NCBI GenBank assembly: GCA_963726455.1
Contig: CAVSCK010000003.1
Coordinates: 320,001-384,000, forward strand
Direction: 5' to 3'
From: an uncultured bacterium
GTDB taxonomy: Bacteria; Zixibacteria; MSB-5A5; CAIYYT01
DNA length: 64,000 bases
Positions 13,384 through 57,570 of the stretch are shown here, piece after piece. Under the pieces are notes generated by a model. That model did not search any database. It was not told where the DNA came from and was given only the letters and a program-made list of their open reading frames with translations. Both the position numbers and the translations under genes were made by a program. How positions within the stretch are numbered: the first letter of the stretch is position 1; each line of letters starts with the position of its first letter.

Positions 13384-14196
13384 CTACATGAACCACTTCT
13401 TCTTTTGATGGATGATGTCACCGAACTTCTTCATAAATTCCATTTCGTCGGGTGACAGCGGTCCCTTGCTCAGGCCTTTGATATTCTCCAGCAGTTGTTT
13501 TTCGTTCAGCGGCGCATTCAAGCAGACGTCAACATTCGGATTCGACAGTACAAAACGATAGCACTGATCCGCGCTCGGAATCGGTGCATCCGCCGGATAG
13601 CCGCCCGGACGCCGCAACAAATATCCCCAACGCGTGGCGGTATAGCTGACGACTCCCGGATCGTGCGCTGCCAGGTGCGGAAAGATATCCTGTTCCGCGC
13701 CACGGTGGGCCGCATTGTAACGCATCATCGTGACATCAATCGCCCCGGCGGAAATCAAATTCCCGATAAACTTCCGATCATGGCACGACATTCCGATCGA
13801 CCGCACCTTGCCTTCTTCGCGGAACTTGCGCATCTCTTCGAGTTCGCGCTCTCCGATGTGTTTCGGCTTGGTCACCCCGAGAAAGAGGAACACATCGATG
13901 TAATCGGTCTTGAGCTGGCGCAACCGCTTTTCCAGAGTGCGACGCAAATTGGGATGGCCAACCAGCAAATTGTACGCGCCGGTACTGATGACAAGCTTCT
14001 CGCGCTGTGTCGCCGAGAATTCCCGCAGCGCTTTGGTCATCTGCCAGTCAAAACCATAACAGAAGAAGTAGTTGACGCCGGCGTCGAGTGCTTTGTGAAT
14101 GGCGTTCTTACCGGGACGATAGGTACCCGACAGACCGAGGCGAAATACCTTCAGCCCGGTGTTGCCGAGCGTGGCATGCAGAAAGTCATCATTCAT
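13384..14196 (-). CDS. Aldo/keto reductase family oxidoreductase
   Basis: LGNTGLKVFRLGL, LRQLKTDYIDVF, GKVRSIGMSCH; probable start MNDDF at 14196. Confidence 0.85.
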   Translation of the reverse strand: MNDDFLHATLGNTGLKVFRLGLSGTYRPGKNAIHKALDAGVNYFFCYGFDWQMTKALREFSATQREKLVISTGAYNLLVGHPNLRRTLEKRLRQLKTDYIDVFLFLGVTKPKHIGERELEEMRKFREEGKVRSIGMSCHDRKFIGNLISAGAIDVTMMRYNAAHRGAEQDIFPHLAAHDPGVVSYTATRWGYLLRRPGGYPADAPIPSADQCYRFVLSNPNVDVCLNAPLNEKQLLENIKGLSKGPLSPDEMEFMKKFGDIIHQKKKWFM

Positions 14197-14356
14197 GTTT
14201 CTGGTCTCCGATTGGCAGTGATGTTCCACTACAAGATCGCCGTCGGAGCGCCAAACAGCAACAAAAACGATGACTTTGTAACTTACTTGATATGAACTGA
14301 GATTGTTCGCGCGCGGCGTACGAGGTACGTACACCGCGCCCGATTAGAAATCGAAC

Positions 14357-14860
14357 TTACTCCAGACAGTCCGCGAGTTTGTCGAACATCTGGTTCCACC
14401 CGTCCTTGCATTCGTCATTTATCTTACCGGCTGGTATCCCGACATGCGTCAGCGTCATTCTGGTTTTGCCGTTTTGTTCGTGGAACGTAACGGTGATGCG
14501 CGTTTCCATCGGGAAGTCCCCTTCAAAACCGTAGTGCTTCGCCGAAACGGGATTACCCTTTTCGTCGGCGAATGAGTCGGTTACAGTGATGCGTTCATTC
14601 TTGACAATTTCGCGATAGGTGCCGGTGGTGTAGGTGTCCTTCCCTTCCGGCGACCGCATACAACCGACATACTTGCCGCCCACGCGGAAATCAATTTCAG
14701 CCATCGGCGTAGTATAACCGTTCGGCCCCCACCATTTCTTGAGGTATTCCGGTTCCGTCCAGGCCCGCCATACGTGTTCGCGCGGCGCATCGAACACACG
14801 ATTGATTACGATGTCTGTCCCCTGCTTGGTCTTTTGACTAACACTGTGCTTGGATGACAT
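14357..14860 (-). CDS. SRPBCC/AHA1 (START-like) domain protein
   Basis: RVFDAPREHVWRAWTEPEYLKKWWGP, DFRVGG, GWNQMFDKL; GGAGG RBS. Confidence 0.9.
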   Translation of the reverse strand: MSSKHSVSQKTKQGTDIVINRVFDAPREHVWRAWTEPEYLKKWWGPNGYTTPMAEIDFRVGGKYVGCMRSPEGKDTYTTGTYREIVKNERITVTDSFADEKGNPVSAKHYGFEGDFPMETRITVTFHEQNGKTRMTLTHVGIPAGKINDECKDGWNQMFDKLADCLE

Positions 14861-15075
14861 ATTTCCTCCAGTCTGTCCTGTTGTGGATCAACTCTCTTAA
14901 CTCGGTCACCTGACGATACGGGACATCATTGATCCGCGTTGGACATGATCGGCACAGCCCCGGACGTAATCAGCGGCAGTGACTTCGTAATTCCGCCTAC
15001 TGTATGGGCTTTCTCATACTGACGACCAGACTCCGTTGCCCCACAGGACATTGGCCGTGCCCGCCGACATATATC

Positions 15076-15104
15076 TTGCCTGAAACGCTCCTGTTTACTA
15101 TCAT
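15076..15104 (+). promoter_or_regulatory. Putative sigma70 promoter of tpl
   Basis: TTGCCT-17 bp-TATCAT, 47 bp upstream of the start codon. Confidence 0.55.
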
Positions 15105-15127
15105 CCCTCGGCACATGTTGAGCATGA

Positions 15128-16541
<1,414 letters not shown>

Positions 16542-16553
16542 CTCTATCGTCTG

Positions 16554-16794
16554 ACCCGTAGGAACACCCGTAGGGACACCCGTAGGGACACCCGTAGGGG
16601 CGCACGGCAGTGCGCCCAGTTTTACGTAGGTCGGCGTTCATGTTGTGTCAGGTCCTGCGCACGACGAAGTCGGGCGTGAGACCTGACACTTTCATATTCG
16701 CGCCGTCAACTCGTGCGCTGTCAGGAACCCCTTCCTGACGGAACCATCTTGCATGTCCCGGAGCTATGTCATTCCCGCGAAGGCGGGAATCCAG
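16554..16794. repeat. Cluster of different REP-like hairpins at the left edge of the low-GC island
   Basis: Three ACCCGTAGG(G/A)AC 12-mers lead into GTAGGGGCGCACGGCAGTGCGCCC; then GTCAGGTC..GACCTGAC, GTCAGGAAccccTTCCTGAC and GTCATTCCCGCGAAGGCGGGAATCCAG. Confidence 0.75.
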
Positions 16795-16876
16795 GCTGAT
16801 TTCGTTTGCCGAGGGCCCGGCTCGCCCCTTTCGACTGTGACCTATTGCAAGATCGTTCATTACACCGAAATAACAC

Positions 16877-16929
16877 TTGACACGCCTCGACAAGAACGCA
16901 ACCTTAAAGGCGATATTGTCGTTGACAAT
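16877..16929 (+). promoter_or_regulatory. Putative island promoter with a downstream palindromic operator
   Basis: TTGACA (16877) with a weak -10 (CAACCT/AACCTT, ~16900), and the inverted repeat ATTGTC-GTT-GACAAT (16915-16929). Confidence 0.4.
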
Positions 16930-17014
16930 CCATGGGAGGGATCACAAAGTGTCAGAACCGGAGAGGTTCGACCCATTGGGACGCGTAGTCTTCTGACTTT
17001 AACAAGGGAGAATT

Positions 17015-17272
17015 ATGAACGAGGAGTTGTTATACTCGATTGATCGTAGTCTTAAGGCTCTGCTTGGGCTTATCGTTTCAATTCGCGACGACAAGCCTCT
17101 TTCACTACGCGAACGAATCGCACGACTGCACGATTTGGGATTTAAGCCAAAGGAGATCAGCGAGATCCTAGGGCGGACGGGAAAGTTTGTTAGTAAGGAA
17201 CTGTCAGAACTTCGCAAGATAAAGAGCAAAGGTGGTAAGAAGAATGGCAAAGGTGCAAAACAAAAAGACTAG
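17015..17272 (+). CDS. Small HTH protein 1 (85 aa)
   Basis: AAGGGAG RBS; LHDLGFKPKEISEILGRTGKFVSKELSELRK fits an HTH pattern; basic tail. Confidence 0.75.
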   Translation: MNEELLYSIDRSLKALLGLIVSIRDDKPLSLRERIARLHDLGFKPKEISEILGRTGKFVSKELSELRKIKSKGGKKNGKGAKQKD

Positions 17273-17450
17273 CCAAAAGCCGGAAAAACAGATCAAGCCC
17301 AGCACCACGACGGAGGACTTGTTACGTGACCTGATGATGATCCAACTCGGATTAGCTGGTGTATCTCAGGAAAATATCAGAACCATTGTCGGCGTCGACA
17401 ATAACCGTGTAAGTTGGATTGTACGACACGTCAGAAAGGGGGATAAATAG
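17244..17450 (+). CDS. Small HTH protein 2 (68 aa)
   Basis: Overlaps the previous gene; LAGVSQENIRTIVGVDNNRVSWIVR HTH pattern. Confidence 0.7.
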   Translation: MAKVQNKKTSQKPEKQIKPSTTTEDLLRDLMMIQLGLAGVSQENIRTIVGVDNNRVSWIVRHVRKGDK

Positions 17451-17451
17451 A

Positions 17452-17646
17452 ATGGCCGCCAAGAAAACGACACCAACAAAGAGAGTGCCCCAGGATGATC
17501 CAGACTACCTGCTGAACTATTTGGTGGCGTTAGAACTCTTTAAGCTTGGGCTGTCGCAGGTGGATATTGGAAAGCGTTTGCGTCTGCAGACGGCTATCGT
17601 CAACCAAATGCTCAAGGGCATTGATAGGAAGAAGCTCAATCAATGA
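17452..17646 (+). CDS. Small HTH protein 3 (64 aa)
   Basis: AAGGGGGA RBS, start 1 bp after the previous stop; KLGLSQVDIGKRLRLQTAIVNQMLKG HTH pattern. Confidence 0.72.
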   Translation: MAAKKTTPTKRVPQDDPDYLLNYLVALELFKLGLSQVDIGKRLRLQTAIVNQMLKGIDRKKLNQ

Positions 17647-17780
17647 AATCTGAAAACAGAGTCAGAATCCTCATTTGGAGCAGGAAATGGTCTCGTCCAC
17701 GGAGTGACATAACACGGACTTTCGGTACACCGATCAAGACTGTTCGAACGCTATTAACCCCGAAAGGGTGTAAGGCGTAA
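17643..17780 (+). CDS. Small HTH-like protein 4 (45 aa, not in ORF track)
   Basis: MKSENRVRILIWSRKWSRPRSDITRTFGTPIKTVRTLLTPKGCKA*. ATGA overlap with gene 3; the stop is 1 bp before the next ATG. Confidence 0.55.
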   Translation: MKSENRVRILIWSRKWSRPRSDITRTFGTPIKTVRTLLTPKGCKA

Positions 17781-17781
17781 T

Positions 17782-18498
17782 ATGGCTCGAGCTAGGCTTG
17801 ATCCTAAGTTGATGCAGAAGGTGGCACAGAAACTGAGGCTCGCCAAGAACCGAGTTAATGTCAAGATCAGCAAGAAGGCAAACAGGCTCGGGATATCCTC
17901 TGAAGCAGCTCTTGCCATCTTGGCGAAAGAACTTGGTATCGCTACCGGGGTATATCAGAGAAGACTTGACCCAACGATCCAGTCAGAGATCAGGATGGCG
18001 CTGCCTACCATAATGCCCTCTCCGAACATACCTCCACCTAGAGTAAATCTACGTCACAAATCCGGTGGAACCGCAGTCGGAAATCAGCGTACCGCATTAA
18101 AGGCCGCTGCTGAATATGTCATTCAAGACGAGGAACTTCGGTCCAGATGCACTGATCTACTTCTGGGTAAGAAGCACTTTGATAGAGCTGTGAATCAAGC
18201 GACGTTGGTTCTTGAAGATAGACTGCGACACAAAGCACAGCCAACAGCGCGACTGGTCGGCGAGAATCTAGCTGGGCATGCTATCAACAGCGATCTTGTA
18301 AAGACAGTATTGAAGGTGAGCGATAATCAGGACGAACAGAGAGGCATTTCAGAGATTGTCAGAGGCATCGTTCCAGCATTTCGCAACACCACGCATCACC
18401 ACCTAGTCGATAGTTTTACTCGCGAAGACGCATTGAGGGTGTGTGGGTTCATCGATGTATTGTTACGCATCATCGATAAGTCAACGAAAGTAAGGTAG
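17782..18498 (+). CDS. TIGR02391/Ymh-like protein with a HEPN-type RxxxxH motif and a basic helical N-terminal domain
   Basis: FDRAVNQATLVLEDRLR, LVGENL, DEQRGISEIVRGIVPAFRNTTHH and EDALRVCGFIDVLLR match the Ymh pattern from memory; Pro-rich linker. Confidence 0.75.
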   Translation: MARARLDPKLMQKVAQKLRLAKNRVNVKISKKANRLGISSEAALAILAKELGIATGVYQRRLDPTIQSEIRMALPTIMPSPNIPPPRVNLRHKSGGTAVGNQRTALKAAAEYVIQDEELRSRCTDLLLGKKHFDRAVNQATLVLEDRLRHKAQPTARLVGENLAGHAINSDLVKTVLKVSDNQDEQRGISEIVRGIVPAFRNTTHHHLVDSFTREDALRVCGFIDVLLRIIDKSTKVR

Positions 18499-18552
18499 AG
18501 TTTACGATTTTAGGGATCGCGAGCATGTGCTTTAGGTTCCGCAACAACCAGT

Positions 18553-19437
18553 ATGCCACAGAACGTTACTGACATTCGCTCTAATCTCAACGACCAGATT
18601 GCAAATGCTGCCAAGATCATTGGAAGGTCCAAACAAAGACAAATTGTGTTCAAAGAGATTTACAGAGGCAAGCAGAGAACCAAGACGATTGCGGAACTGG
18701 TGGATGCCACTGGATTAACAAATATCCGCGTTTTGCAGGAAGGAAGTCGCCTAGCACAGCATCAACTAGTTGAAAAGGTTAAGAATGGCTATCGTAAGGA
18801 CCCATTCTATTCGCTTCATTATCGAAGGATTCTTAACTTCGCTCAAAATCCCAATCGACTCAAGAGACTGCCGACTAAAGTCTCTCCCAATATTGCGTCG
18901 CAGAATGTCCGTGTCACTTTTCCTGCTACTGCGGCGAAGGCTATTCACATTACAATGGACGATATTGACTCTTTTAGCATGGTACGACAAGTAAAGATCT
19001 CGACTTCTGCAGTTGACGATCAAAAGCTTTATGAAGCTCACATCAAGTCAGCCGTGAAGAGCTTGATTGGCGAGTCGGGCAAATTCAAAGACTGGGGTGG
19101 CGAGAAGAATGACCTTTTCACGACAAAGGTCAAAATTAAGGGGAGGCGCAGACCAGCGGCATTTGCATTCAAGGGTAGAGCAACGAAGGGAACCCTCACT
19201 CTTGACAAAATGGGTAAACGTGCGGATCAGGTAATTAGACTTTTCTCTGATTCGGTAGCAGAAGTGTACTTGATTGTCTACCAAGGGCAGATAGCTCCGG
19301 TGATATTAGATCAGATGAAGGCTCTAGCCGTCGCAAAAGCTATCGGTGGTGAGAATATCTACTATGGAGTGCTCGATGGGGATGATCTAAGGCGACTCAA
19401 AGCTGCTTACCCCAGCTTCTTTAAGGTGCATAAGTGA
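18553..19437 (+). CDS. wHTH + restriction-endonuclease-like (PD-(D/E)XK variant) protein
   Basis: N-terminal KTIAELVDATGLTNIRVLQEGSRLAQHQLVEK (wHTH-like); C-terminal LYE..DWGGEKNDLF..AAFAFKG..ADQVIRL. Confidence 0.65.
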   Translation: MPQNVTDIRSNLNDQIANAAKIIGRSKQRQIVFKEIYRGKQRTKTIAELVDATGLTNIRVLQEGSRLAQHQLVEKVKNGYRKDPFYSLHYRRILNFAQNPNRLKRLPTKVSPNIASQNVRVTFPATAAKAIHITMDDIDSFSMVRQVKISTSAVDDQKLYEAHIKSAVKSLIGESGKFKDWGGEKNDLFTTKVKIKGRRRPAAFAFKGRATKGTLTLDKMGKRADQVIRLFSDSVAEVYLIVYQGQIAPVILDQMKALAVAKAIGGENIYYGVLDGDDLRRLKAAYPSFFKVHK

Positions 19438-19601
19438 AGGGAAAATTGCGTTGCCTCATGCGCTAATTCCAGTACCGTAGGTCAGGAGCCCGCCACGGTA
19501 CCCCACTCAGCGGGTGGGAACTTCCGGCGACTACTGCTCCCCTCAACTTTTTCATCTCACTCTGACCTGAGCAACTACCAACAAGACCACTACAAGCCCC
19601 C

Positions 19602-19711
19602 AAAATATTTTTCCCCGTTCCGGCACTTCCTGCGCCGCGCCTAACCTCTTGTCTGCGAGTGTCACATCTCATTGCGGCGGGTGAACTGCCGGAATTTCTC
19701 AAAAATATTTT
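19602..19711. repeat. 110-bp imperfect inverted repeat followed by a T-run
   Basis: AAAATATTTTT..TTCCGGCA (19602-19625) pairs with TGCCGGAA..AAAAATATTTT (19687-19711). Confidence 0.6.
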
Positions 19712-19916
19712 CACTTTTTTTCTCCCTCCTATCACCCTCATTTCGTCTCCTGTGACTCCATCCACGTTTCTACTATCCTCTCCCCCAACCACTTACCCTC
19801 CTTTCGAGGATAAATCTCAAGACCCCATATAAGTAGAACGCAGGTTGCGGCACCGAAGGTCACCCCGGAGGGCTTTGTGGGTCTGGTGATTAGCGGCTGA
19901 GCAAAATGGGAGTTTT

Positions 19917-20537
19917 GTGAATCAACCTTCTACCGATCAGGAATCCCCGACGACAACACGGTTACGACTAAGCTATCCATGCCGAACTCTAACCGTGTCG
20001 TCCCGGGCATACTCGTCCTTCGCCGTGGTGAGTGAGTCTGTCGCTGTAAACCTTGTGGTTCGCGCTGTCGGATACCCGCCGTCCCCCCGACACGCTTTGA
20101 TGTACCGCGCCGTCAGGAATCCTTTCCTGACGGAACAGGTACTCCACAGCTTGCTGTGGGTGTACTCGCCACATCATCGCACCGGTGCCCCATCCGCTTG
20201 CGGTGGGTTTCGTATGTCTTCCTTACCGATTGTCTTCGGTTTGGCTCACGCCTGTCAAGACGGTCTCTATCGACGAACAGTTCACACCGTCGGAGGGAAC
20301 CCAGTAATAGAGCGTATCGCGACAACCGTGAATCCGATCAACTTCGCTACCAGGGCGAACAACGGCGAAGTTGGTGGCTCAATGGAGGAGCGTCCCCTTA
20401 TCCCCGCAACACGTTCGGCGTTTCCGGGTCTCGGCAGTGATCAAGTCCCCGATCCAGCTGGAGCATCGACTTCTCGTGGCGGTGCAGGCGCCATATCGGC
20501 CTGCTATGACGGCACAATGCCGCAGCACGAGATATAA
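19917..20537 (+). CDS. Orphan ORF (206 aa), doubtful
   Basis: GGGGAG upstream of the GTG; no recognisable domain; contains a REP hairpin at 20110-20133. Confidence 0.25.
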   Translation: MNQPSTDQESPTTTRLRLSYPCRTLTVSSRAYSSFAVVSESVAVNLVVRAVGYPPSPRHALMYRAVRNPFLTEQVLHSLLWVYSPHHRTGAPSACGGFRMSSLPIVFGLAHACQDGLYRRTVHTVGGNPVIERIATTVNPINFATRANNGEVGGSMEERPLIPATRSAFPGLGSDQVPDPAGASTSRGGAGAISACYDGTMPQHEI

Positions 20538-20704
20538 GATACCCAGGCCGGACTAACGGAGTTAATCCGTCACCGGAACACGCGTTTAAAGGTTCGCTTG
20601 GTCTTTGACATCGCGAATTGTAATGATTCGCGCCATATACGTTTGACACGTCTGCCATGACGTGACGCCTGGAGCGCCCGTAGTCTAGCCCCTTGTGGGC
20701 GTTT

Positions 20705-20783
20705 GCGGCGCACGAGGACGTACGCCGCGCACGGAACTGGACACGGCAGGCGAGGACGACTGCCGCGCACAAAGCCGCGCACA
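20705..20783. repeat. REP-like hairpins GGCAGGCGAGGACGACTGCCGCGCAC downstream of glyQS
   Basis: Intact copy at 20745-20770 with degenerate neighbours. The same motif occurs at ~25632, 28207, 28394 and 28531. Confidence 0.7.
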
Positions 20784-20790
20784 GCGAAGG

Positions 20791-22122
20791 TCAGGCGTCG
20801 ATCTTCTTTTTGAAGGTCGGGATGAGGTCGGCGATTTTGACGCGGGATTGTTCCATCGTGTCGCGGTCGCGGATCGTGACGGTCTCATCCTCTTTGGTCT
20901 GGCCGTCGATGGTTATGCAATAAGGCGTGCCGATTTCATCCATGCGGCGGTAACGTCGACCGACCGCACCGGAATCATCATAGAATGCCTTGAAGTGTTC
21001 TTTGAGCTCGTGGAAGACCTTCATCGCGATTTCGGGCATGCCATCCTTGTTAACCAGCGGGAAGACGGCGACCTTGACCGGCGCGATTTTGGGTGAGAAT
21101 TTCAGCACCACGCGCGTTTCGCCTTTGACTTCTTCTTCCTGATAGGCGTCGACCAACAGCACCAACAGCGTGCGGTCACAGCCGGCGGAGGTTTCGATGA
21201 TGTAGGGAATGAATTTCGTCTTGGTCGGTTCGTCGAAATAGCTTAAATCCTTGCCGGTGGCCTCGGCGTGACGGCTGAGGTCGAAATCGGTGCGGTTGTG
21301 GATGCCTTCGAGTTCTTTCCAGCCGAACGGGAATTCGTATTCGATGTCGTAGGCCTTTTTGGCGTAATGCGCGAGTTCGTCCTTGCCATGTTCGTGATAA
21401 CGGAGCTTGTCCTTGTTGATGCCGAGTTCGTAGTACCATTTCAGGCGTTCGGCCTTCCAGTATTCGAACCACTGGTCGTCATCGAACGGATTGATAAAGA
21501 ACTGCATTTCCATCTGTTCGAATTCGCGCGTGCGGAAAATAAAATTGCCGGGCGTGATTTCGTTGCGGAAGGCCTTGCCGATCTGGGCAATGCCAAACGG
21601 CACTTTCTGGCGCGACGGGCCCATGACATTGAGGAAGTTGACATAGATGCCCTGTGCTGTCTCGGGACGCATGTAGACGACGGCGGATGAATCCTCGACT
21701 GGGCCCATGAAGGTTTTGAACATCAGGTTGAACTGGCGCGGTTCGGTGAGTTCGCCGCCGCATTCCAACGGTGATTTCGAGGGTTTCATCGGGCAGCGCG
21801 CGGTTTCCAGTTGATCGGCGCGGAAACGGGCTTTGCATTTTTTGCAGTCGACCATGGGATCGGTGAAGTTGGCGACATGGCCGGAGGTTTCCCAGACTTT
21901 GGGGTGCATGAGAATCGCGGCGTCAATGCCTTCGACATCGTCGCGTTTCTGGGTCATGGCCTTCCACCAGAAATCCTTGAGGTTGCGTTTGAGTTCAACG
22001 CCGTAAGGGCCGTAATCCCAGCAACTGCCGAGGCCGCCGTAAATCTCCGACGACTGAAATACAAAGCCGCGCCGTTTGCACAGGGAAACTATCTGCTCCA
22101 TTCTGTCAACTGTCTTCGCCAC
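20791..22122 (-). CDS. glyQS: Glycine--tRNA ligase (alpha2 homodimeric type)
   Basis: SSEIYGG, RPETAQGI, FRNEITPGNFIFRTREFEQME, GRRYRRMDEIGTP; GTG start at 22122 with a GGAGG RBS. Confidence 0.96.
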   Translation of the reverse strand: MAKTVDRMEQIVSLCKRRGFVFQSSEIYGGLGSCWDYGPYGVELKRNLKDFWWKAMTQKRDDVEGIDAAILMHPKVWETSGHVANFTDPMVDCKKCKARFRADQLETARCPMKPSKSPLECGGELTEPRQFNLMFKTFMGPVEDSSAVVYMRPETAQGIYVNFLNVMGPSRQKVPFGIAQIGKAFRNEITPGNFIFRTREFEQMEMQFFINPFDDDQWFEYWKAERLKWYYELGINKDKLRYHEHGKDELAHYAKKAYDIEYEFPFGWKELEGIHNRTDFDLSRHAEATGKDLSYFDEPTKTKFIPYIIETSAGCDRTLLVLLVDAYQEEEVKGETRVVLKFSPKIAPVKVAVFPLVNKDGMPEIAMKVFHELKEHFKAFYDDSGAVGRRYRRMDEIGTPYCITIDGQTKEDETVTIRDRDTMEQSRVKIADLIPTFKKKIDA

Positions 22123-22903
22123 GGATTCCTCCATCCTGATGCATAAGATCCAACTTGCGCAGGAAATCGAACGATTTGAGATCAGCCCGTTTCCCGATGT
22201 GATACTCGGTGAGCGCGACCAGCATCTGCCGAATCTGTTCGGCCTGCGCCTTGGCCAGCGTGACTTTCCGATTATCACTGATGTCGGTACCCGCCAGTTT
22301 TTCCAGCGCCTTGACCGTGCCACGGTCGAGGGGAATTGTCAGGCGGTCGCCGACACATTTCTTACAAAGCAGCCCACCGCTCGCCGGGTCAAACATCAGC
22401 CGGTCGCCGACGATCTTGTCGCCGCACTCGACACAGGCGCCCAGCTCGGGGGCGTAGCCGGAGAATATACAGAGCAGATACCAGAAATGCAAAAGCTCCC
22501 TGCGGAAACTCTGCTCGGAGGAGTTGTTCATCAGACGCAGGAATTTCTTGAGTGTGAAGTAGAGCTGGCTGTTGACCTCGTCCTCGGGCAGGAAAAGATT
22601 GGCCAATTCGAGCGCCGCCGAACCGTAGCCGAATTTCTGTTCGTCCTGGGCGATGTTGTCGAAGCTTTCCACGACTTCGGCTTTGGAGATGTAATCGGCC
22701 GATTCGCTTTCGCGCTGGTAGAAGACGACATCGGCAACGACAAAGTATTGCAGCGATTCGGCGCTGGCGGAACCGGGGCGCGTGGCGGAACGCGCCACTA
22801 GCGGCAGTTTGCCGTAGTCACGCGTGAGACAGATCAGGAAGAGCGAGCTTTCCTGAACTTTGGTTCGTTTCAGAACCAGCAATTCGGTTTTCTTAAGTGA
22901 CAT
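22106..22903 (-). CDS. recO: DNA repair protein RecO
   Basis: LTRDYGKL OB-fold start; GYAPEL and a CxxC..GGLLCxxC zinc finger; recO-glyS synteny. Confidence 0.9.
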   Translation of the reverse strand: MSLKKTELLVLKRTKVQESSLFLICLTRDYGKLPLVARSATRPGSASAESLQYFVVADVVFYQRESESADYISKAEVVESFDNIAQDEQKFGYGSAALELANLFLPEDEVNSQLYFTLKKFLRLMNNSSEQSFRRELLHFWYLLCIFSGYAPELGACVECGDKIVGDRLMFDPASGGLLCKKCVGDRLTIPLDRGTVKALEKLAGTDISDNRKVTLAKAQAEQIRQMLVALTEYHIGKRADLKSFDFLRKLDLMHQDGGIRGEDS

Positions 22904-22917
22904 GGCCGTGAAGCCGG

Positions 22918-23220
22918 CTAAAACTCGATGATGGTTTCGCCGGGGCGTTTAAGCTGGAAATTCTTGCGGGCAACCTTTTCGATGTAGAGCGAGTCGTTCA
23001 GAAGGCGATCGCGCTTGAGTTCGAGATCGGCGACCTGTGCTGAGAGCTTGAGCTCTTCGGCTTTGAGCTCGGTGATCTGTTTCTTGAGTTCCATCATGTT
23101 CAGGAAACCGTATTCGCCGACGAACAGTTTGAAGCCGACTGCGAGGAAAATGGCAAGCAGGATGAAGCGCAGGACTTTGACGCGGTAGCCGGGTTTGGTG
23201 TCTTCGGTGTTCTTGCGCAC
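22918..23220 (-). CDS. ftsB: Septum formation initiator FtsB/DivIC
   Basis: One TM helix, a coiled coil and YIEKVARKNFQLKRPGE; directly downstream of eno. Confidence 0.85.
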   Translation of the reverse strand: MRKNTEDTKPGYRVKVLRFILLAIFLAVGFKLFVGEYGFLNMMELKKQITELKAEELKLSAQVADLELKRDRLLNDSLYIEKVARKNFQLKRPGETIIEF

Positions 23221-51437: not shown

Positions 51438-52372
51438 GGCCTTCCCCTCACCATGTCGGCGATACGTTTGGCAAAGGAACGCCGGTGGTACTCGTGGTAA
51501 GTGACGGGTTGTGCGCCCCAGCCGGCCTTGAATCGCTTGAGTCCCTCGTCGGTTTCAGGAGAAGCGCCGAAGTTGAAGCGTTGCCGTCCGAAGTCGCGGC
51601 TGCGGGAAATCATAAGGTCAAAGAGGAAGAAATTCGCGGCGAGCTCAAGTCCGACGGCACTGGCATAGCCATCGAAGTAGAAAACATCGGACGGGCTGAC
51701 GAAGTAAAAGTGCAGGGCAAGGAGACTGTCGTCACGAAAAGCGCCGACCATGGTGACGCCGCTGTCATCGGATTGACTTAGTATGTAGAGGGCGGCATAA
51801 AAGGTTTCCGAGAGACGGCGCTCTTCTCCGGTTCGGTCAATATGGTCGCGACGAAGTTGATCGATGGCGACGATATCGGCGATGCCAAGGCGACGGCTGA
51901 CCAATCCCTGTTGTTGGGATTTCCTGACGTTGCGGAGAGTGTTCTCGGAGTATGAGGAGGGTATCGAGAGATCGAGAACATGCGTCGTCAATTCATGCCT
52001 CTGATATTGATCGGGGTATTTCAAATCGAAGGACGGCGACATTTGGACGATGCGTTCGTCGATAAAACGCTGGTCTTGCAGCCAGGCGAATACCTGTTCC
52101 TTGAATGCGGGGTCAGAAGAGCCACCGAGAAAACCGCCATACCATCCGAATGGCAACGAGTAGAACGTGGTGCCAAGTGCCATCTTCTTGCGGAAGCCGA
52201 CAAACAATTCCTGCCCGTCGGATAAAGCGACTCCGTCCCAACCGTACACTTGCTCCCAGATTGCCAGCAAATCGCGGGTGTAAAACATCCCGGGGAGTCC
52301 ATAGCCCTGCGCTGGTTGAAGAACGGAATCAGGAATTTGTGAGACAGGAATTATATCGAATGACATCGGCAC
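51434..52372 (-). CDS. GNAT/FemAB-like N-acyltransferase
   Basis: SLPFGWYGG, RNVRKS, FNFGAS..GLKRFKAGWGA. Confidence 0.8.
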   Translation of the reverse strand: MPMSFDIIPVSQIPDSVLQPAQGYGLPGMFYTRDLLAIWEQVYGWDGVALSDGQELFVGFRKKMALGTTFYSLPFGWYGGFLGGSSDPAFKEQVFAWLQDQRFIDERIVQMSPSFDLKYPDQYQRHELTTHVLDLSIPSSYSENTLRNVRKSQQQGLVSRRLGIADIVAIDQLRRDHIDRTGEERRLSETFYAALYILSQSDDSGVTMVGAFRDDSLLALHFYFVSPSDVFYFDGYASAVGLELAANFFLFDLMISRSRDFGRQRFNFGASPETDEGLKRFKAGWGAQPVTYHEYHRRSFAKRIADMVRGRP

Positions 52373-52375
52373 ACA

Positions 52376-54529
52376 TCACTTGCGCACGACAAATAACTTT
52401 CCGGTATGACGGCTCTTATCTTCGGCGATGATGTGATAAATATAAACTCCGGAAGCCACGAGAGCACCCGCATCATTGCGGCCATCCCACCCCCGGTCGA
52501 CATCCGTAATCCGTATCAGTTCGCCGGCCACGTTGTAGATTCGCACCTCGGCGCGCTGATTGATCTTGAATTGCAGTGTGGCATTTCCACCGAGTTGAAT
52601 TACGAAAGGATTGGGGTAAGCATAGTTTTGTGCGGCGGAATCGACGGGGCTTAACGAATAATCGAGAATCGACAGGCCGCCGCGCGTGAAGATCAGGAGC
52701 TTGCCGGATTCGTGATCGAATGAAAGACCCTGAATTTCATTGGCGACCAGCTCGGAGTTGTCGGTATTGAAAGCAATCTTCTGCGACTGACCATACGAGA
52801 TGAAGGCCAGTCCGTCGGTGGTGCCGACCCAAAGATTGTTTCTGCTATCGGATGCCAAAGCGCGCACATCAGAGCTGACGCCATCCGGCAATGCCACGAT
52901 GTGGAAGAAATCGATGTCGGCGTCAAAATAGGCAAGCCCGAGAGGTGTGCCGACCCAGAGGCGGTTGTCGCGGTCGAAAATCATGGTGTTGACCGTAGCA
53001 GACGGAAGCAATACGGAGCGGCTATAGTATTTGAGTGTGTCGCCGGAGTGATTAAACGGATCGGCGCCGTAACGGACAAGCATGACACCCTGGCTTTGGG
53101 TGCCGAGGGCAGCCATGCCGATTCCGGCAGCTACGCAAGTGCAGTTGGAGTCGACGACGCCGTCGGAGGCATCGAACCAGGTCCAGAGCGAATCGTGCGG
53201 ATCGAACATGACGAGCGGGCGCATAGGAGACGCCTGATATGACGAAAACCAGATGCGACCGGCTGGGTCGGTGTACATACCGTTGATGACACCGACGCTG
53301 TCCGGATACAGATTCGGACCTTTTAGTTGGGAATTTCCACCGTGGAAGTTGCGGCGGGTGCCAACGGGGAGATACTGCATCGCTCCCCGGGCAAAGGTGC
53401 CGACCCAGAAGGAACCGTCGTCGCCGATGGTGGACGAAATCTTTTCGGCGTCGGGAGCGGTGAGCGTGTCCCAGACATTGTTCTTCATGCGCGCGGGATT
53501 TCCCTGTCGACTGACAGCGTAGAGGTACCCGTCGGGCGTAATGCCGCCGCCGATGAGGTCGTTGCTGGTGGGGCCGGGGACGGGAACGCGGATGTAAGTA
53601 AACTGGCTGTAATGGTAGATGCCGCTTTGAGTCGTCCCGGCAAATGAATACTGCAGGAAGTTCAATTGGTCCGGAGGGAATACATTCAGTTGCTCGACTC
53701 CGATGCGGTCGTCATACACAAGATAGGTCATGTTACTATCGGAGATGACAAGCAGTTGACTCCCGGAAGGAGACAAGCTTCTCACTCGAACACCGGTATC
53801 TCTAACGGTTAGAGCCGTGTCGCCGTCCATCAGATACGAGAACCCGTTCGTTCCCCCAATCCACAAGCGATCGACTATGATGCAGAGATTCGTAAGTGAG
53901 TTCTGATCAGTAGGGATGTTCTTCCACTCGTTGGGATCAAGCAGGAATAGATTAGTGTCGTCGGCATAGGCGAGACCCTCGCCGGTGGCGGCGTAGATTT
54001 TGCCGTTGAAGATCGCCACGTCGTTCACCGGTATTTCGGTGCCGAAGTTGCCGAGGGTGCGGTAGATTTCTTTTACCTCACCGCCGTTGCGGAAGCGGTC
54101 GAACTTGATGACGCCAATACTCGACGCAATCCAGAGATAGCCGGCGGAAGTGTCAGCATGGAATAATTCGACATTGGCGCCGTCGCGGCCGGTGAAGGTG
54201 TAGGTGGTGAAGCTGATATCGCGCAAGTCGAGCCGGTTGAGCACGCCGTCGGCGGAGCCGAAGTAGGCAATTGAGTCGCCGGCGTAGCACGAGAAATTCA
54301 GATCGATACTGCCGAGACCGTCGTTCTTGACATAAGTCACGATCGTATCAAGCGATTGAGTAAACTTCACCAACCCGCCGGTCGTGGTCGCCCAGACAAA
54401 ACCACCGAAGTAGTTTAGAGAAGTGATGGCGTCCTTGTTGGTGTAGGTTTGCCAACTGTACAGTTGCGCCCGGGAGACGTTGCTGACTGTGAGTATGACG
54501 GTGATGATGAGTAGCGCGCGGTTAATCAT
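52376..54529 (-). CDS. PorZ-like beta-propeller protein with a T9SS-type C-terminal domain
   Basis: Signal peptide, WQTY start, repeated DxxNxLWVGTxxGL blades, FNTDNSEL; YAYPNPF..WDGRN..ASGVY..GKLFVVRK CTD. Confidence 0.75.
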   Translation of the reverse strand: MINRALLIITVILTVSNVSRAQLYSWQTYTNKDAITSLNYFGGFVWATTTGGLVKFTQSLDTIVTYVKNDGLGSIDLNFSCYAGDSIAYFGSADGVLNRLDLRDISFTTYTFTGRDGANVELFHADTSAGYLWIASSIGVIKFDRFRNGGEVKEIYRTLGNFGTEIPVNDVAIFNGKIYAATGEGLAYADDTNLFLLDPNEWKNIPTDQNSLTNLCIIVDRLWIGGTNGFSYLMDGDTALTVRDTGVRVRSLSPSGSQLLVISDSNMTYLVYDDRIGVEQLNVFPPDQLNFLQYSFAGTTQSGIYHYSQFTYIRVPVPGPTSNDLIGGGITPDGYLYAVSRQGNPARMKNNVWDTLTAPDAEKISSTIGDDGSFWVGTFARGAMQYLPVGTRRNFHGGNSQLKGPNLYPDSVGVINGMYTDPAGRIWFSSYQASPMRPLVMFDPHDSLWTWFDASDGVVDSNCTCVAAGIGMAALGTQSQGVMLVRYGADPFNHSGDTLKYYSRSVLLPSATVNTMIFDRDNRLWVGTPLGLAYFDADIDFFHIVALPDGVSSDVRALASDSRNNLWVGTTDGLAFISYGQSQKIAFNTDNSELVANEIQGLSFDHESGKLLIFTRGGLSILDYSLSPVDSAAQNYAYPNPFVIQLGGNATLQFKINQRAEVRIYNVAGELIRITDVDRGWDGRNDAGALVASGVYIYHIIAEDKSRHTGKLFVVRK

Positions 54530-56033
54530 GATGCCCTTTCGTGAGCATCAGAATAAACGCAGCTAGCGCGGTAACGGCAAGACAAATCTTCGAGAGGAGC
54601 AGGCCGTAGGTGTCGAACAACGTGGTGCGCGTTTTGTCGCCGATCATGCCTGAGAGTATAGTCGTCTCCCGCAATTTGGTTTTCGCCACGATTCTGCCGT
54701 TGGGATCGATAATTTCACTGACGCCGGTGTTGGCGGAACGCACGATCCAGACACGATTTTCGACGGCGCGGAAGATCGGAATGGCGGCGTGCTGATAAGG
54801 ACCGGCGGTAGGCCCGAACCAGTCATCATTGGTGATGGAGGTCAGGAAATTCGCACCGGAGTTGACCATTTCGCGGACATACTCGGGATATACAGTCTCA
54901 AAGCAGATCAGCACACCGAAACGGTGACCGTGGGAGGTAAACGTGACCAGCGAATCGCCCGGCTCAAAGTCGGAGATATCGAGGTTGAGTTTGTTCTTGA
55001 CGAATTCGCGGAACGACGCCAGGAAGCCAATTTTGTCGGCGTATGGCATGAGTTCGCCGAATGGCACGAGGATGTGCTTGTTGTAAGGCACCTTGTTCAT
55101 GCCTTGCGGAGTGAACATGAAGGCAGAGTTGTAGAAGTGTTTCTTGAAATCCTCGGTGCGGACCAGATGCAAAGCGCCGACGAGCATATCGACGCTGTCG
55201 CGTTTGGCAATTTCCTCCAGCCAGGTGATATAATTGTCCTCGTAGTACAAATATGCCGGAACCGCTGATTCCGGCCAGATGAACAGCTTGGCGGAATCGG
55301 CAGCAGCAGCAGCCGCGAGACGTTGATAATCCATAAAGCTGCGGTCAAGCCCACCTGGCTGCCACTTCTGGCTGATCGGAACATTGCCCTGCAAGGCGGC
55401 AACTTTGAAATCGCCGGTGACCGGCTCGACGCGCGTCGCGCCCCAGAGATACGCTCCAGCATAAACCACCAGTGCTATCGCAAAGACTATCGAGGAGCGG
55501 AGTGGATGATGAACATTGCGATAGCCGAGATAGAGCAGGATGCCAATGACAACGACGAAGAAGCTGACAACGGCGTCGCCACTAAGTTCGGAAAGCTGGA
55601 CAATCGGCAGATTAGCTGCCTGGGTGTACGACAGGTTAAGCCACGGAAAAGAGACCTCGGTCAGCGAGCGAAGATATTCGACGGCGACCCAGACGAACGG
55701 CAGCAGAATCAGGCCGCGGGTACCGTAGCGGCGTGTTGACGCGGCCAGGAGTCCGGCGATGACGGCGTAGTAAATCGCGTGCACGACAATCAGCAGGATC
55801 ACGCCGGTGATGGTGACATAGACGACCCAGTAGAGGGTCAGAAATGAGATCACCATTCCGAACATGTAGCCGCTGCGAAGGCCTTCCTTGAAAGTGAGCC
55901 CGCGCGTGGCGGCGATGAAGATCGGAACAAAGAAGTAGGCCAGAAACCAGAACGGCAGCGGCTCGAATGATAGACTGAAAAAGATGGCGGCAACCAGAAG
56001 AGCGAACCAGCGCTGCGGAAGCTTGAATCGCAT
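54522..56033 (-). CDS. lnt: Apolipoprotein N-acyltransferase
   Basis: WPESA, YNKHILVPFGE, ICFE, TNDDWF, RSANTG. Confidence 0.95.
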   Translation of the reverse strand: MRFKLPQRWFALLVAAIFFSLSFEPLPFWFLAYFFVPIFIAATRGLTFKEGLRSGYMFGMVISFLTLYWVVYVTITGVILLIVVHAIYYAVIAGLLAASTRRYGTRGLILLPFVWVAVEYLRSLTEVSFPWLNLSYTQAANLPIVQLSELSGDAVVSFFVVVIGILLYLGYRNVHHPLRSSIVFAIALVVYAGAYLWGATRVEPVTGDFKVAALQGNVPISQKWQPGGLDRSFMDYQRLAAAAAADSAKLFIWPESAVPAYLYYEDNYITWLEEIAKRDSVDMLVGALHLVRTEDFKKHFYNSAFMFTPQGMNKVPYNKHILVPFGELMPYADKIGFLASFREFVKNKLNLDISDFEPGDSLVTFTSHGHRFGVLICFETVYPEYVREMVNSGANFLTSITNDDWFGPTAGPYQHAAIPIFRAVENRVWIVRSANTGVSEIIDPNGRIVAKTKLRETTILSGMIGDKTRTTLFDTYGLLLSKICLAVTALAAFILMLTKGHHD

Positions 56034-56053
56034 TGAGGACGTTCGCGGTTCCG

Positions 56054-57570
56054 TTACAGGAACAGCGACCTGCCGGTCATTTCGGGTGGCACGTTCATTT
56101 TGAGTAACTGTAACATCGTGGGGGCAATATCGGCTAATATTCCACCGGAACGCAAGCGAGGTTTAACGGACTGGTCATAAAAAAGCAGCGGCACCGGATT
56201 GGTCGTATGTGCCGTGAACGGTTTGCCGGTCTGCTTGTCGATCATGGTTTCGGCGTTGCCATGGTCTGCGGTGATAATGGCGCTGCCGCCGAGTTCCTCG
56301 ACTGCTGCCAGCACCTGGCCGACTCCGGAATCGACAGCTTCGATGGCTCTGACTGCGGCCGGAATTATGCCGGTGTGGCCGACCATGTCGGGATTGGCAA
56401 AGTTCAATACGACAACATCAAATTTCCGTGAGCGAATATGCTGCGCGCACTTGGCGGCAACTTCGGGCTCGGACATTTCGGGCTGCAGGTCGTAGGTGGC
56501 AACCTTGGGAGAATGAATCATCTCACGAGATTCGCCGGGGAATGGGATTTCCTCGCCGCCGTTGAAGAAGTAGGTCACGTGAGGATATTTCTCCGTCTCG
56601 GCGATTTTCAAGTACTTCTTCCCTGCTTCAGAGAGAAGCTCGACCAGAATTCGACTCGGTTTGTGATATGGGAAAGCGACGGGAAAATCGAACTTCTCGT
56701 CATACAGAGTCAACGAGACAAGATTGACGTCGGGACCTTCGGGATGTGGGAAGGCCGACTCAGTATGTTTATACAGGATCGACGAAAGCTGGCGAACGCG
56801 ATCGGCGCGGAAATTGAAGAACAGGCAGAGATCGCCGCTCGTGATGCTGAAGGGATGAACCGTGTCGATGACAACCGGCTCGATGAATTCGTCGGTGACG
56901 CCTTTGGCGTAAGAGTCTTCTACGGCCTTAACGGGGTCGCTTGCGTGAACGCCAATGCGTTTGACGATGGCGTTGTAGGCCTTTTCGACGCGATCCCAGC
57001 GTTTGTCACGATCCATGCCCCAGTATCGTCCCATCACCGTCGCGACTTCGCCGAGGCCGGCTGACGCAAATTTGGTAACGCGCTGTTTCATGAAGCCAGC
57101 ACCGGAGGTTGGTGAAGTGTCGCGGCCATCCATGAAGGCATGCAGGAAACAGCTTCTGCACTTTCTCCTTCTTCGCCATATCGATCAAGCGCATCGAGAT
57201 GCTTGAGCGATGAATGGACACCGCCGTCGGAGACCAGGCCGAACAGATGCACGGCATTGCCTGATTTGGAGGCGTTGTCGAAAGCGGTTTTGAGCACGGT
57301 GTTGGTGAAGAAGTCGCCGTCGTCGATAGCTTTGTCGATACGGGTTATTTCCTGATAGATTACGCGCCCGGCGCCGATGTTGAGGTGGCCGACCTCGGAG
57401 TTGCCCATTTGACCAACGGGAAGTCCAACTGATAAACCGGAGGCGCCGATTTGCGTGTGCGGATAGGAAGCAAAGAGTTTGTCGAGGTTTGGCTTTCTTG
57501 CAAGTGAGATGGCGTTACCCGGACCGGGGGCATCAATTCCGTAGCCATCCAAGATCATCAGCAGCAGCAT
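56054..57570 (-). CDS. gpmI: Cofactor-independent phosphoglycerate mutase (frameshifted near 57140-57190)
   Basis: ILDGYG, GNSEVGH, FRADR, NPDMVGH, TADHGN. Confidence 0.95.

Follow-up and report, generated by a model that had tools for sequence, protein, structure and literature searches.

The window analysed here, a 64,000-nucleotide (nt) stretch from the genome of an uncultured bacterium of the Zixibacteria, contains at positions 17015-19437 a block of 2.4 kb with six tightly packed open reading frames (ORFs) on the same strand, designated g1 to g6. We put at roughly 0.55 the probability that this block is a horizontally acquired operon of a modular conflict system (for defence or abortive infection, or of the toxin-antitoxin type) that is widespread and apparently undescribed. 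The reading follows from a pattern characteristic of modular conflict systems: an ordered and coupled array of small helix-turn-helix (HTH) genes, nuclease-type effectors that are exchanged between loci, an adaptor-like domain shared between effectors, a patchy spread and a foreign base composition.

The ORFs of the window were listed as longest open frames, without a gene finder, and their starts were refined with ribosome-binding sites (RBSs) and homologues. With these RBS-supported starts g1 and g2 overlap, g2 and g3 are separated by 1 nt and g3 and g4 share an ATGA overlap; a gap of 1 nt lies between g4 and g5, and 54 nt separate g5 from g6. An earlier note on this DNA, made from its letters, had described six co-oriented genes at these positions, the first five overlapping or 1 nt apart, in a block that is more AT-rich than its surroundings, lies between tpl and glyQS and has no integrase. 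Each of these points holds. The hand counts of GC on which the note relied (24/60 inside the block, 40/60 outside it) were exact on recomputation, and the island has a GC fraction of 0.470 against 0.536 for the genome, a value as low as which is reached by only a fraction of 0.0007 of 3026 equal-sized genome windows (the lowest 0.07%). The neighbours of the block are a tpl-like gene on one side and glyQS on the other, and no integrase-like ORF was seen at 14000-23000, where the ORFs were inspected by eye and no family scan was run. The ORF listing holds no methyltransferase gene within the block. The genes and their domains are given below; the letters A to H denote subfamilies of small HTH proteins from our own clustering, each represented by a hidden Markov model (HMM; smD for subfamily D, and so on), and G176 is the genome with the closest module found.

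17015-17272, plus strand: g1, 85 amino acids (aa), D-type small HTH protein, usual first gene of the array; smD 5.9e-24 in the whole-genome scan, 68% identity to the G176 homologue
17244-17450, plus strand: g2, 68 aa from the ATG at 17244, E-type small HTH protein; smE 5.4e-25, 56% identity to the G176 homologue
17452-17646, plus strand: g3, 64 aa from the ATG at 17452, C-type small HTH protein; smC 1.8e-19, 58% identity to the G176 homologue
17643-17780, plus strand: g4, 45 aa, truncated G-type small HTH protein, of which the C-terminal helix-turn-helix core and an LLTPK tail remain
17782-18498, plus strand: g5, 238 aa, N-terminal adaptor-like domain and Ymh-family HEPN domain
17782-18018, plus strand: adaptor-like domain of g5, residues 1-79, strongly conserved
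18127-18474, plus strand: HEPN domain of g5, residues 116-231, from the Pfam and TIGR matches
18382-18399, plus strand: Rx4H motif of g5, R201-H206 (RNTTHH), conserved
18553-19437, plus strand: g6, 294 aa, described from AlphaFold models and fold matches
18565-18867, plus strand: putative winged-helix domain of g6, residues ~5-105, ArsR/MarR/ORC-type (Z 8-9.7)
19030-19413, plus strand: putative restriction-endonuclease-fold domain of g6, residues ~160-287 (best Z 8.0)

The four tandem genes at the head of the block, all of which the earlier note had taken for HTH genes, comprise three intact ones and a remnant. The proteins g1 to g3 match their subfamily models at E-values from 1e-19 to 1e-25, whereas g4 is truncated at its 5' end: it matches only positions 56-77 of the 79-position G model, measures 45 aa against ~78 aa in the G family and 83 aa in G176, and aligns to its G176 counterpart over only 20 residues, and the missing N-terminal part is absent from every frame. 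The frame of g2 is open from a GTG at 17232, and an RBS (AAGGTGG) precedes the ATG at 17244; that of g3 is open from a TTG at 17419, and the start MAAKK is common to g3 and its G176 homologue. Iterative profile searches starting from g1, g2 and g3 all lead to a single superfamily, within which subfamilies A to G are mutually homologous (hhalign probabilities 51-99%) and form two groups, {A, D, F, G} and {B, C, E}. When the small-HTH HMMs were run against the 30,637 six-frame ORFs of the window's own genome they returned g1-g4 and only five weak others, four of which are extracytoplasmic function (ECF) sigma factors whose region 4 gave the match (E 6e-5 to 1e-3 genome-wide). On this evidence the small proteins are solo HTH domains, most like sigma-70 region 4 as judged from their sequences, with basic tails. 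No Pfam sigma family matched g1-g4, and g1 gave only weak matches to TerS_N (0.0092) and HTH_23 (0.019); the D family produced generic weak HTH matches only among PDB sequences (a designed repeat at 0.0018, a small-terminase HTH at 0.12), and the PHROG matches are weak and to transcriptional regulators. The idea that the small HTH proteins are copies of the effector N-terminal domains was rejected, with hhalign probabilities of at most 12.5%. Outside the window, contig C2 of the same genome carries at 52039-56793 an ORF of 1584 aa, residues ~1498-1566 of which weakly match the A, B and D profiles (E 7.5e-07 to 2.7e-05 in a five-protein search; 0.0046 genome-wide).

The association of these genes with effectors was surveyed in 80 g6-family loci from species-representative genomes and in 80 independent metagenome loci of the g5 family, 67 of which have at least 400 nt of upstream sequence. 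Since kin among the loci are not independent, the counts that follow are descriptive rather than statistical. A loose count, which asks for one or more small-HTH ORFs in the upstream region on the effector's strand, gives 73 of the 80 g6-family loci; when the genes must be contiguous, an array of one to six genes lies directly upstream in 64 of 77. With HMMs built from the g6 loci alone, an array was found upstream in 62 of the 67 g5-family loci. Linkage between the small genes and the effectors, on which the earlier note had made its proposal depend, is therefore conserved on both sides. The genes within arrays are separated by a median of 2 nt. The commonest array at g5 loci, D-E-C-G-[5] (the bracketed number being the effector), occurs in 23 metagenome loci and is the gene order of the window, and the 1-nt spacing between G and [5] recurs in these loci. 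The HTH gene next to the effector depends on the effector itself, being G before [5] in 43 of 62 arrays and B or C before [6] in 51 of 64. The two effectors are seldom found together (3/80 g6 loci and 4/80 g5 loci, with orders such as DECG[5]B[6] and EG[5]C[6]), so that the fixed pair of RNase and DNase effectors envisaged in the earlier note does not stand; g5 and g6 are used as alternatives, and what is conserved is an HTH array with one effector. From the order of the array and the effector-specific proximal HTH gene, it follows that the window has the canonical D-E-C-G-[5] module, behind which a g6 gene has been added. In six loci (L033, L040, L044 and L141-L143) a D-E-(C)-G array is divergent from a g5- or g6-type gene, and the linkage is thus kept even without co-transcription.

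The survey also yielded minimal two-gene forms, with B-[6] alone in 13 loci, B-[5] in seven and G-[5] in five; here a single small partner lies next to its effector, as in type II toxin-antitoxin (TA) modules. These forms, the overlapping or abutting genes with their median gap of 2 nt, and a patchy distribution among varied and mostly housekeeping flanks would all be expected of a pure addiction module with no role in immunity, whose HTH proteins would be labile antitoxins and autorepressors, whose effectors would be growth-arresting toxins, and which would persist selfishly. Three to six different paralogues in a fixed order nevertheless exceed the needs of a TA pair. The local copy, moreover, has a truncated G gene and no B gene beside intact effectors, and some of the flanks, together with the match of related effectors to PDC-M34B described below, point towards defence islands. 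We therefore consider an addiction module possible, if rather unlikely.

Of the two effectors in the window, g5 is assigned by its profile matches to the Ymh family of HEPN proteins, in agreement with its earlier description as a Ymh/TIGR02391-like protein with an RNTTHH motif. Both matches lie above their cut-offs (Pfam Hypoth_Ymh, PF09509, 1.8e-16 and 60.5 bits against a cut-off of 25; TIGR02391, 6.9e-12 and 45.5 bits against 39.45). The motif FRNxTHHH (F200, R201, N202, T204, H205, H206 and H207) is invariant in all 25 full-length relatives and largely kept in 39, which identifies R201 and H206 as the HEPN Rx4H pair, and g5 is accordingly a predicted RNase. Its counterpart in G176 is 66% identical, and its relatives number 326 proteins at E <= 0.001.

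Other effectors take the same position behind small-HTH arrays. They include Swt1-like HEPN proteins (4.8e-12, 1.8e-13), a Schlafen AlbA_2 protein (2.1e-18), a NucS_C/YhcG protein of the PD-(D/E)XK type (4.8e-09) and a ~170-aa Abi_2/Swt1-like family, as well as TIR-like and DUF4420 proteins for which there are weak matches only. Within the window's own phylum, the D-type profile matched six of 285 genomes, and in the five other than that of the window the array is followed by a Ymh-HEPN protein (two genomes) or a Swt1-HEPN protein (three). The N-terminal domain of g5 has homologues in those of five Swt1-HEPN proteins linked to arrays (hhalign 97.7%, E 1.6e-12), a value obtained with the five-sequence alignment, a single Swt1 effector compared with the g5 family having given an insignificant 9.5%. 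By this homology, one adaptor-like domain is fused to two different HEPN families. In g6 and two further effectors, a winged helix stands in place of the adaptor.

The second effector, g6, is modelled as a winged helix and a restriction-endonuclease-fold domain joined by a conserved linker with PTK and IDDIDSF motifs. AlphaFold gave a mean predicted local distance difference test score (pLDDT) of 85.6 for the whole protein; for the C-terminal 175 residues alone the pLDDT was 90.2 and the predicted template modelling score (pTM) 0.87. The best fold matches of the C-terminal domain are almost all PD-(D/E)XK nucleases: AF1548 (Z 8.0), the FokI cleavage domain (7.5), MspJI (7.1), AspBHI (6.6) and LlaBIII (6.5), followed by N.BspD6I (6.2), the Avs4 nuclease (6.0), NucS (5.5) and Can2 (5.5). 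It is this fold evidence that bears out the winged-helix protein with a restriction-endonuclease-like C-terminus proposed earlier. Seven residues are invariant in the family (E161, D180, E184, D187, K207, D225 and Q226), and in the model the first helix contains E161, one strand begins with D187 and the strand after it ends with K207. The models thus point to g6 as a predicted DNase with a PD-(D/E)XK fold. The family is sizeable, with 1337 representative clusters at E <= 0.001 and 456 at 1e-30 among 1.84 billion; an Atlas cluster of the family is auto-named restriction endonuclease, and there is an Mrr_cat neighbour at 0.82, both of which serve as leads only.

The resemblance of this domain to FokI, MspJI, AspBHI and LlaBIII, the automatic name of the cluster and the lack of a methyltransferase gene in the block would also suit a split restriction-like enzyme, in which the small HTH proteins and the winged helix would be separate DNA-recognition subunits steering the PD-(D/E)XK domain to particular DNA, modified or foreign DNA for example. 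In FokI and MspJI, DNA recognition and cleavage reside within one chain. The same arrays, however, serve HEPN RNase-type, Schlafen and TIR-like effectors, which need no targeting to DNA sites, and a split enzyme is to our minds very unlikely.

The block is of foreign origin and was probably acquired horizontally. In 40 related genomes no relative of g6 was found, and g5 has just two weak matches; in a same-genus genome glyQS and an aldo-keto-reductase (AKR) gene are present, but both the tpl-like gene and the island are missing from the interval that separates them. The g6-family loci, for their part, are spread over ~20 bacterial phyla, five lineages of the candidate phyla radiation (CPR) and seven archaeal lineages. 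No relative of g6 was found in 2.9 million viral contigs, two of which encode a protein that has a related Ymh domain but another N-terminus; a methylase gene lies next to it, and there are no arrays. The prevalence of HTH and winged-helix domains in the block, together with the weak PHROG matches to transcriptional regulators, could be taken to mean that the small proteins serve a mobile element as ordinary transcription factors and that g5 and g6 are non-toxic regulators that bind nucleic acid. This is extremely improbable, given that the surroundings of the module show no further conserved genes of an element in 160 loci, that the catalytic-type residues are invariant, and that neither the g6 family nor the full-length g5 architecture was found in viral contigs.

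We rate the module as toxin-antitoxin-like or abortive-infection-like, with a novel core of multiple paralogous HTH proteins. Its constant part would be the array, in which paralogous HTH proteins of 60-80 aa, similar to sigma-70 region 4, are encoded in a set order and with translational coupling among themselves and to the effector; its variable part would be the effector, of which the window has two, the Ymh-HEPN protein behind D-E-C-G and the downstream winged-helix/PD-(D/E)XK protein. The array may act as a regulatory, neutralising or sensing core, its proteins binding nucleic acid and controlling the effector by transcription and/or by contact with the effector N-terminal domains; the roles of antitoxins, sensors or a hetero-oligomeric regulator that the earlier note suggested for them are likewise conjectural. 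A trigger such as phage infection would then free a nuclease activity directed at RNA by the HEPN domain and at DNA by the PD-(D/E)XK fold. What the data establish is the structure of the genes, the identity of the domains, the conserved linkage and order, the exchange of effectors, the patchy spread and the foreign base composition; the nuclease activity, toxicity, contact between HTH proteins and effector, trigger and role in immunity are inferred.

A number of observations weigh against this interpretation. Under the contiguity rule 13 of 77 g6 loci and five of 67 g5 loci have no contiguous array, although some of these misses are due to the ORF rule. Of 133 nearest large flanking genes sampled, most have unrelated housekeeping functions; only a minority belong to defence systems or mobile elements (AbiEii-type ATPases, methylases, AriA, AbiEi, SoFic, recombinases and PIN), and these are suggestive at most, as the flanking families were taken from the top 25 per library with no matched control. 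No PADLOC defence model covers the small HTH proteins (19 tested, no significant match). The nuclease assignment of g6 is based on moderate fold scores (Z 5.4-8.0): Foldseek returned nothing at E <= 0.001 for the C-terminal domain (best MspJI, 8.3e-3), and g6 has no match to a Pfam, NCBIfam or PADLOC nuclease model or to a PDB sequence. The residue two positions before K207 is A or F, so that the canonical (D/E)xK becomes A/F-x-K; the catalytic signature is therefore non-canonical and the activity of g6 a prediction, in which the invariant E184, D180, D225 and Q226 might act as substitutes.

The local copy raises a further difficulty. Here only part of the G gene is left and g6 lacks a preceding B- or C-type gene, and yet both effectors keep all their family-invariant residues; such compromised proximal HTH genes are hard to square with an essential adjacent antitoxin and thus disfavour a simple model of that kind. 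The copy may be read in three ways: the distal HTH proteins may suffice, control may be transcriptional, or the copy may be decaying. In the last case the block would be a non-functional remnant, derived from an acquired D-E-C-G-[5] fused with [6] that has lost part of G and a B-type gene. The survival in g4 of only family positions 56-77 of 79, the canonical order DECG[5]B[6] or EG[5]C[6] of two-effector loci and the frameshift in the adjacent tpl-like gene are consistent with decay. Against this, g1, g2, g3, g5 and g6 are full length with every family-invariant residue, and the coupled starts and RBSs are intact, which leads us to regard a decaying remnant as unlikely.

The likeness of the small proteins to sigma-70 region 4 allows a more specific, if far-fetched, variant of immunity, to which we give little credence: the small proteins could be stand-alone mimics of sigma region 4 that act as baits for phage proteins targeting sigma factors or RNA polymerase. 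A phage protein would bind the decoy array, or displace the array from -35-like DNA, and the attached effector, be it HEPN, restriction-fold, Schlafen or TIR, would be freed or activated in a guard-type immunity that watches over the transcription machinery. The diversity of paralogues A-H would then mirror a range of sigma mimics.

Should the interpretation as a modular conflict system be correct, one simple genomic signature would mark a modular system across many bacterial phyla, the CPR and archaea: very small HTH genes of the sigma region 4 kind, lined up in a set order and directly followed by an effector that has either the shared N-terminal adaptor or a winged helix. It would add a new family to the catalogue of prokaryotic conflict systems, give a function to two sizeable families of hypothetical proteins (those of g5 and g6), and pose a new question of mechanism: what the need is for several paralogous mini-HTH proteins in a fixed order. 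As the canonical five-gene operon spans only ~1.9 kb, it would be easy to test.

The sequences around the block contain a candidate control element and a repeat on either side:

16915-16929, plus strand: candidate promoter/operator, a 15-nt palindrome ATTGTC-GTT-GACAAT overlapping a TTGACA box, 86-100 nt upstream of g1, from the sequence and an inverted-repeat scan
16720-16739, no strand: REP-like palindrome GTCAGGAAnCCnTTCCTGAC, left copy, from a repeat search of the genome
20112-20131, no strand: REP-like palindrome GTCAGGAAnCCnTTCCTGAC, right copy, from the same search

The 16915-16929 palindrome does not recur before the D-type genes of the other 72 loci, and its function is therefore speculative. 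No recurrent palindrome was found upstream of the 73 D-type genes, 43 of which have TTGACA upstream, as promoters would predict; the promoter scan gave no plus-strand sigma-70 match before g1. The repetitive extragenic palindromic (REP) clusters said in the earlier note to bound the block do lie on either side of it (16720 and 20112), but the genome contains GTCAGGAAnCCnTTCCTGAC 35 times (21 of them exact), which makes it a generic REP-like repeat; it was rejected as an island border. Some of the copies are grouped locally, as on contig C4, where four lie within ~700 nt. The window has no Rfam match and no gene in a tRNA scan.

Upstream of the block, the tpl-like gene (tyrosine phenol-lyase/tryptophanase family, 15143-16541) is interrupted near 16290 by a frameshift: against a 467-aa orthologue from the same genus, one frame matches up to 16291 and another from 16290 onwards (90.9% and 95.2% identity). 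The frameshift could reflect a pseudogene or an assembly error. This orthologue was seen in only one of three same-genus genomes, the others having only a ~50% paralogue. Just past the stop codon of the tpl-like gene, a 12-nt unit, ACCCGTAGGGAC, is repeated in about four head-to-tail copies at 16554-16601, followed at 16598-16617 by a GC-rich hairpin with a T-run. Downstream, the 1.35 kb between g6 and glyQS (19438-20790) contain no convincing gene and no Rfam match and show a strong skew of C over G (GC skew -0.34 at 19400-19800). They are partly conserved within the genus, at 83% (20275-20426) and 78% (20561-20637) in one genome and at 68% (19829-20103) in another.

Several elements of the block have counterparts in known systems. 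According to the accessible part of the 2013 survey of the HEPN superfamily, the Ymh family is classed as HEPN and occurs in conflict and defence contexts, in restriction-modification operons and Abi-type fusions, with architectures that include solo proteins and fusions to paraMORC, AbiJ-NTD1 and AbiTii (PMC3710099). The same domain and Rx4H motif are present in g5, and that part of the survey mentions neither small-HTH gene arrays nor an N-terminal domain of the g5 type (PMC3710099). No description of small-HTH arrays with these effectors was found in the literature searched, whose coverage leaves out most subscription journals.

In line with the earlier failure to recognise a named system, a scan of the PADLOC HMMs against the six proteins gave only a weak match, of PD-Lambda-3_B to the HEPN domain of g5 (5.7e-06); component A of PD-Lambda-3 is matched by none of the six, and the block is not assigned to that system. 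Component B of the PADLOC candidate PDC-M34, by contrast, is strongly matched by the array-linked Swt1-HEPN effectors of other loci (1.3e-46, 8.8e-53), whereas none of g1-g6, neither effector included, matches PDC-M34, and 19 small-HTH proteins match no PDC-M34 model.

AbiE and HEPN-MNT are toxin-antitoxin or abortive-infection pairs in which an HTH partner accompanies a nuclease toxin. Like such pairs, the block couples a small upstream partner to a downstream HEPN or nuclease protein and is compact, mobile and patchy in its distribution. It differs from them in having up to six paralogous HTH genes in a preferred order, in using one array type for many effector families, and in a partner that appears to be sigma-region-4-like rather than Xre, MNT or AbiEi. 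The enzymes MspJI, AspBHI, FokI and AF1548/Mrr-like proteins, which gave the best fold matches (Z 8.0-6.5), place a DNA-binding domain before a PD-(D/E)XK fold, as g6 appears to do; g6 shares no sequence-level relation with them, has the A/F-x-K motif, has neither a methylase nor an SRA-like reader and, unlike these enzymes, is linked to small-HTH arrays. Hyper-promiscuous antitoxin domains such as PanA/Panacea have another fold, and the small-HTH operons contain several paralogues each, whose neutralising role is putative. The two may be alike in their organization, in which one constant partner family is combined with many unrelated effector families.

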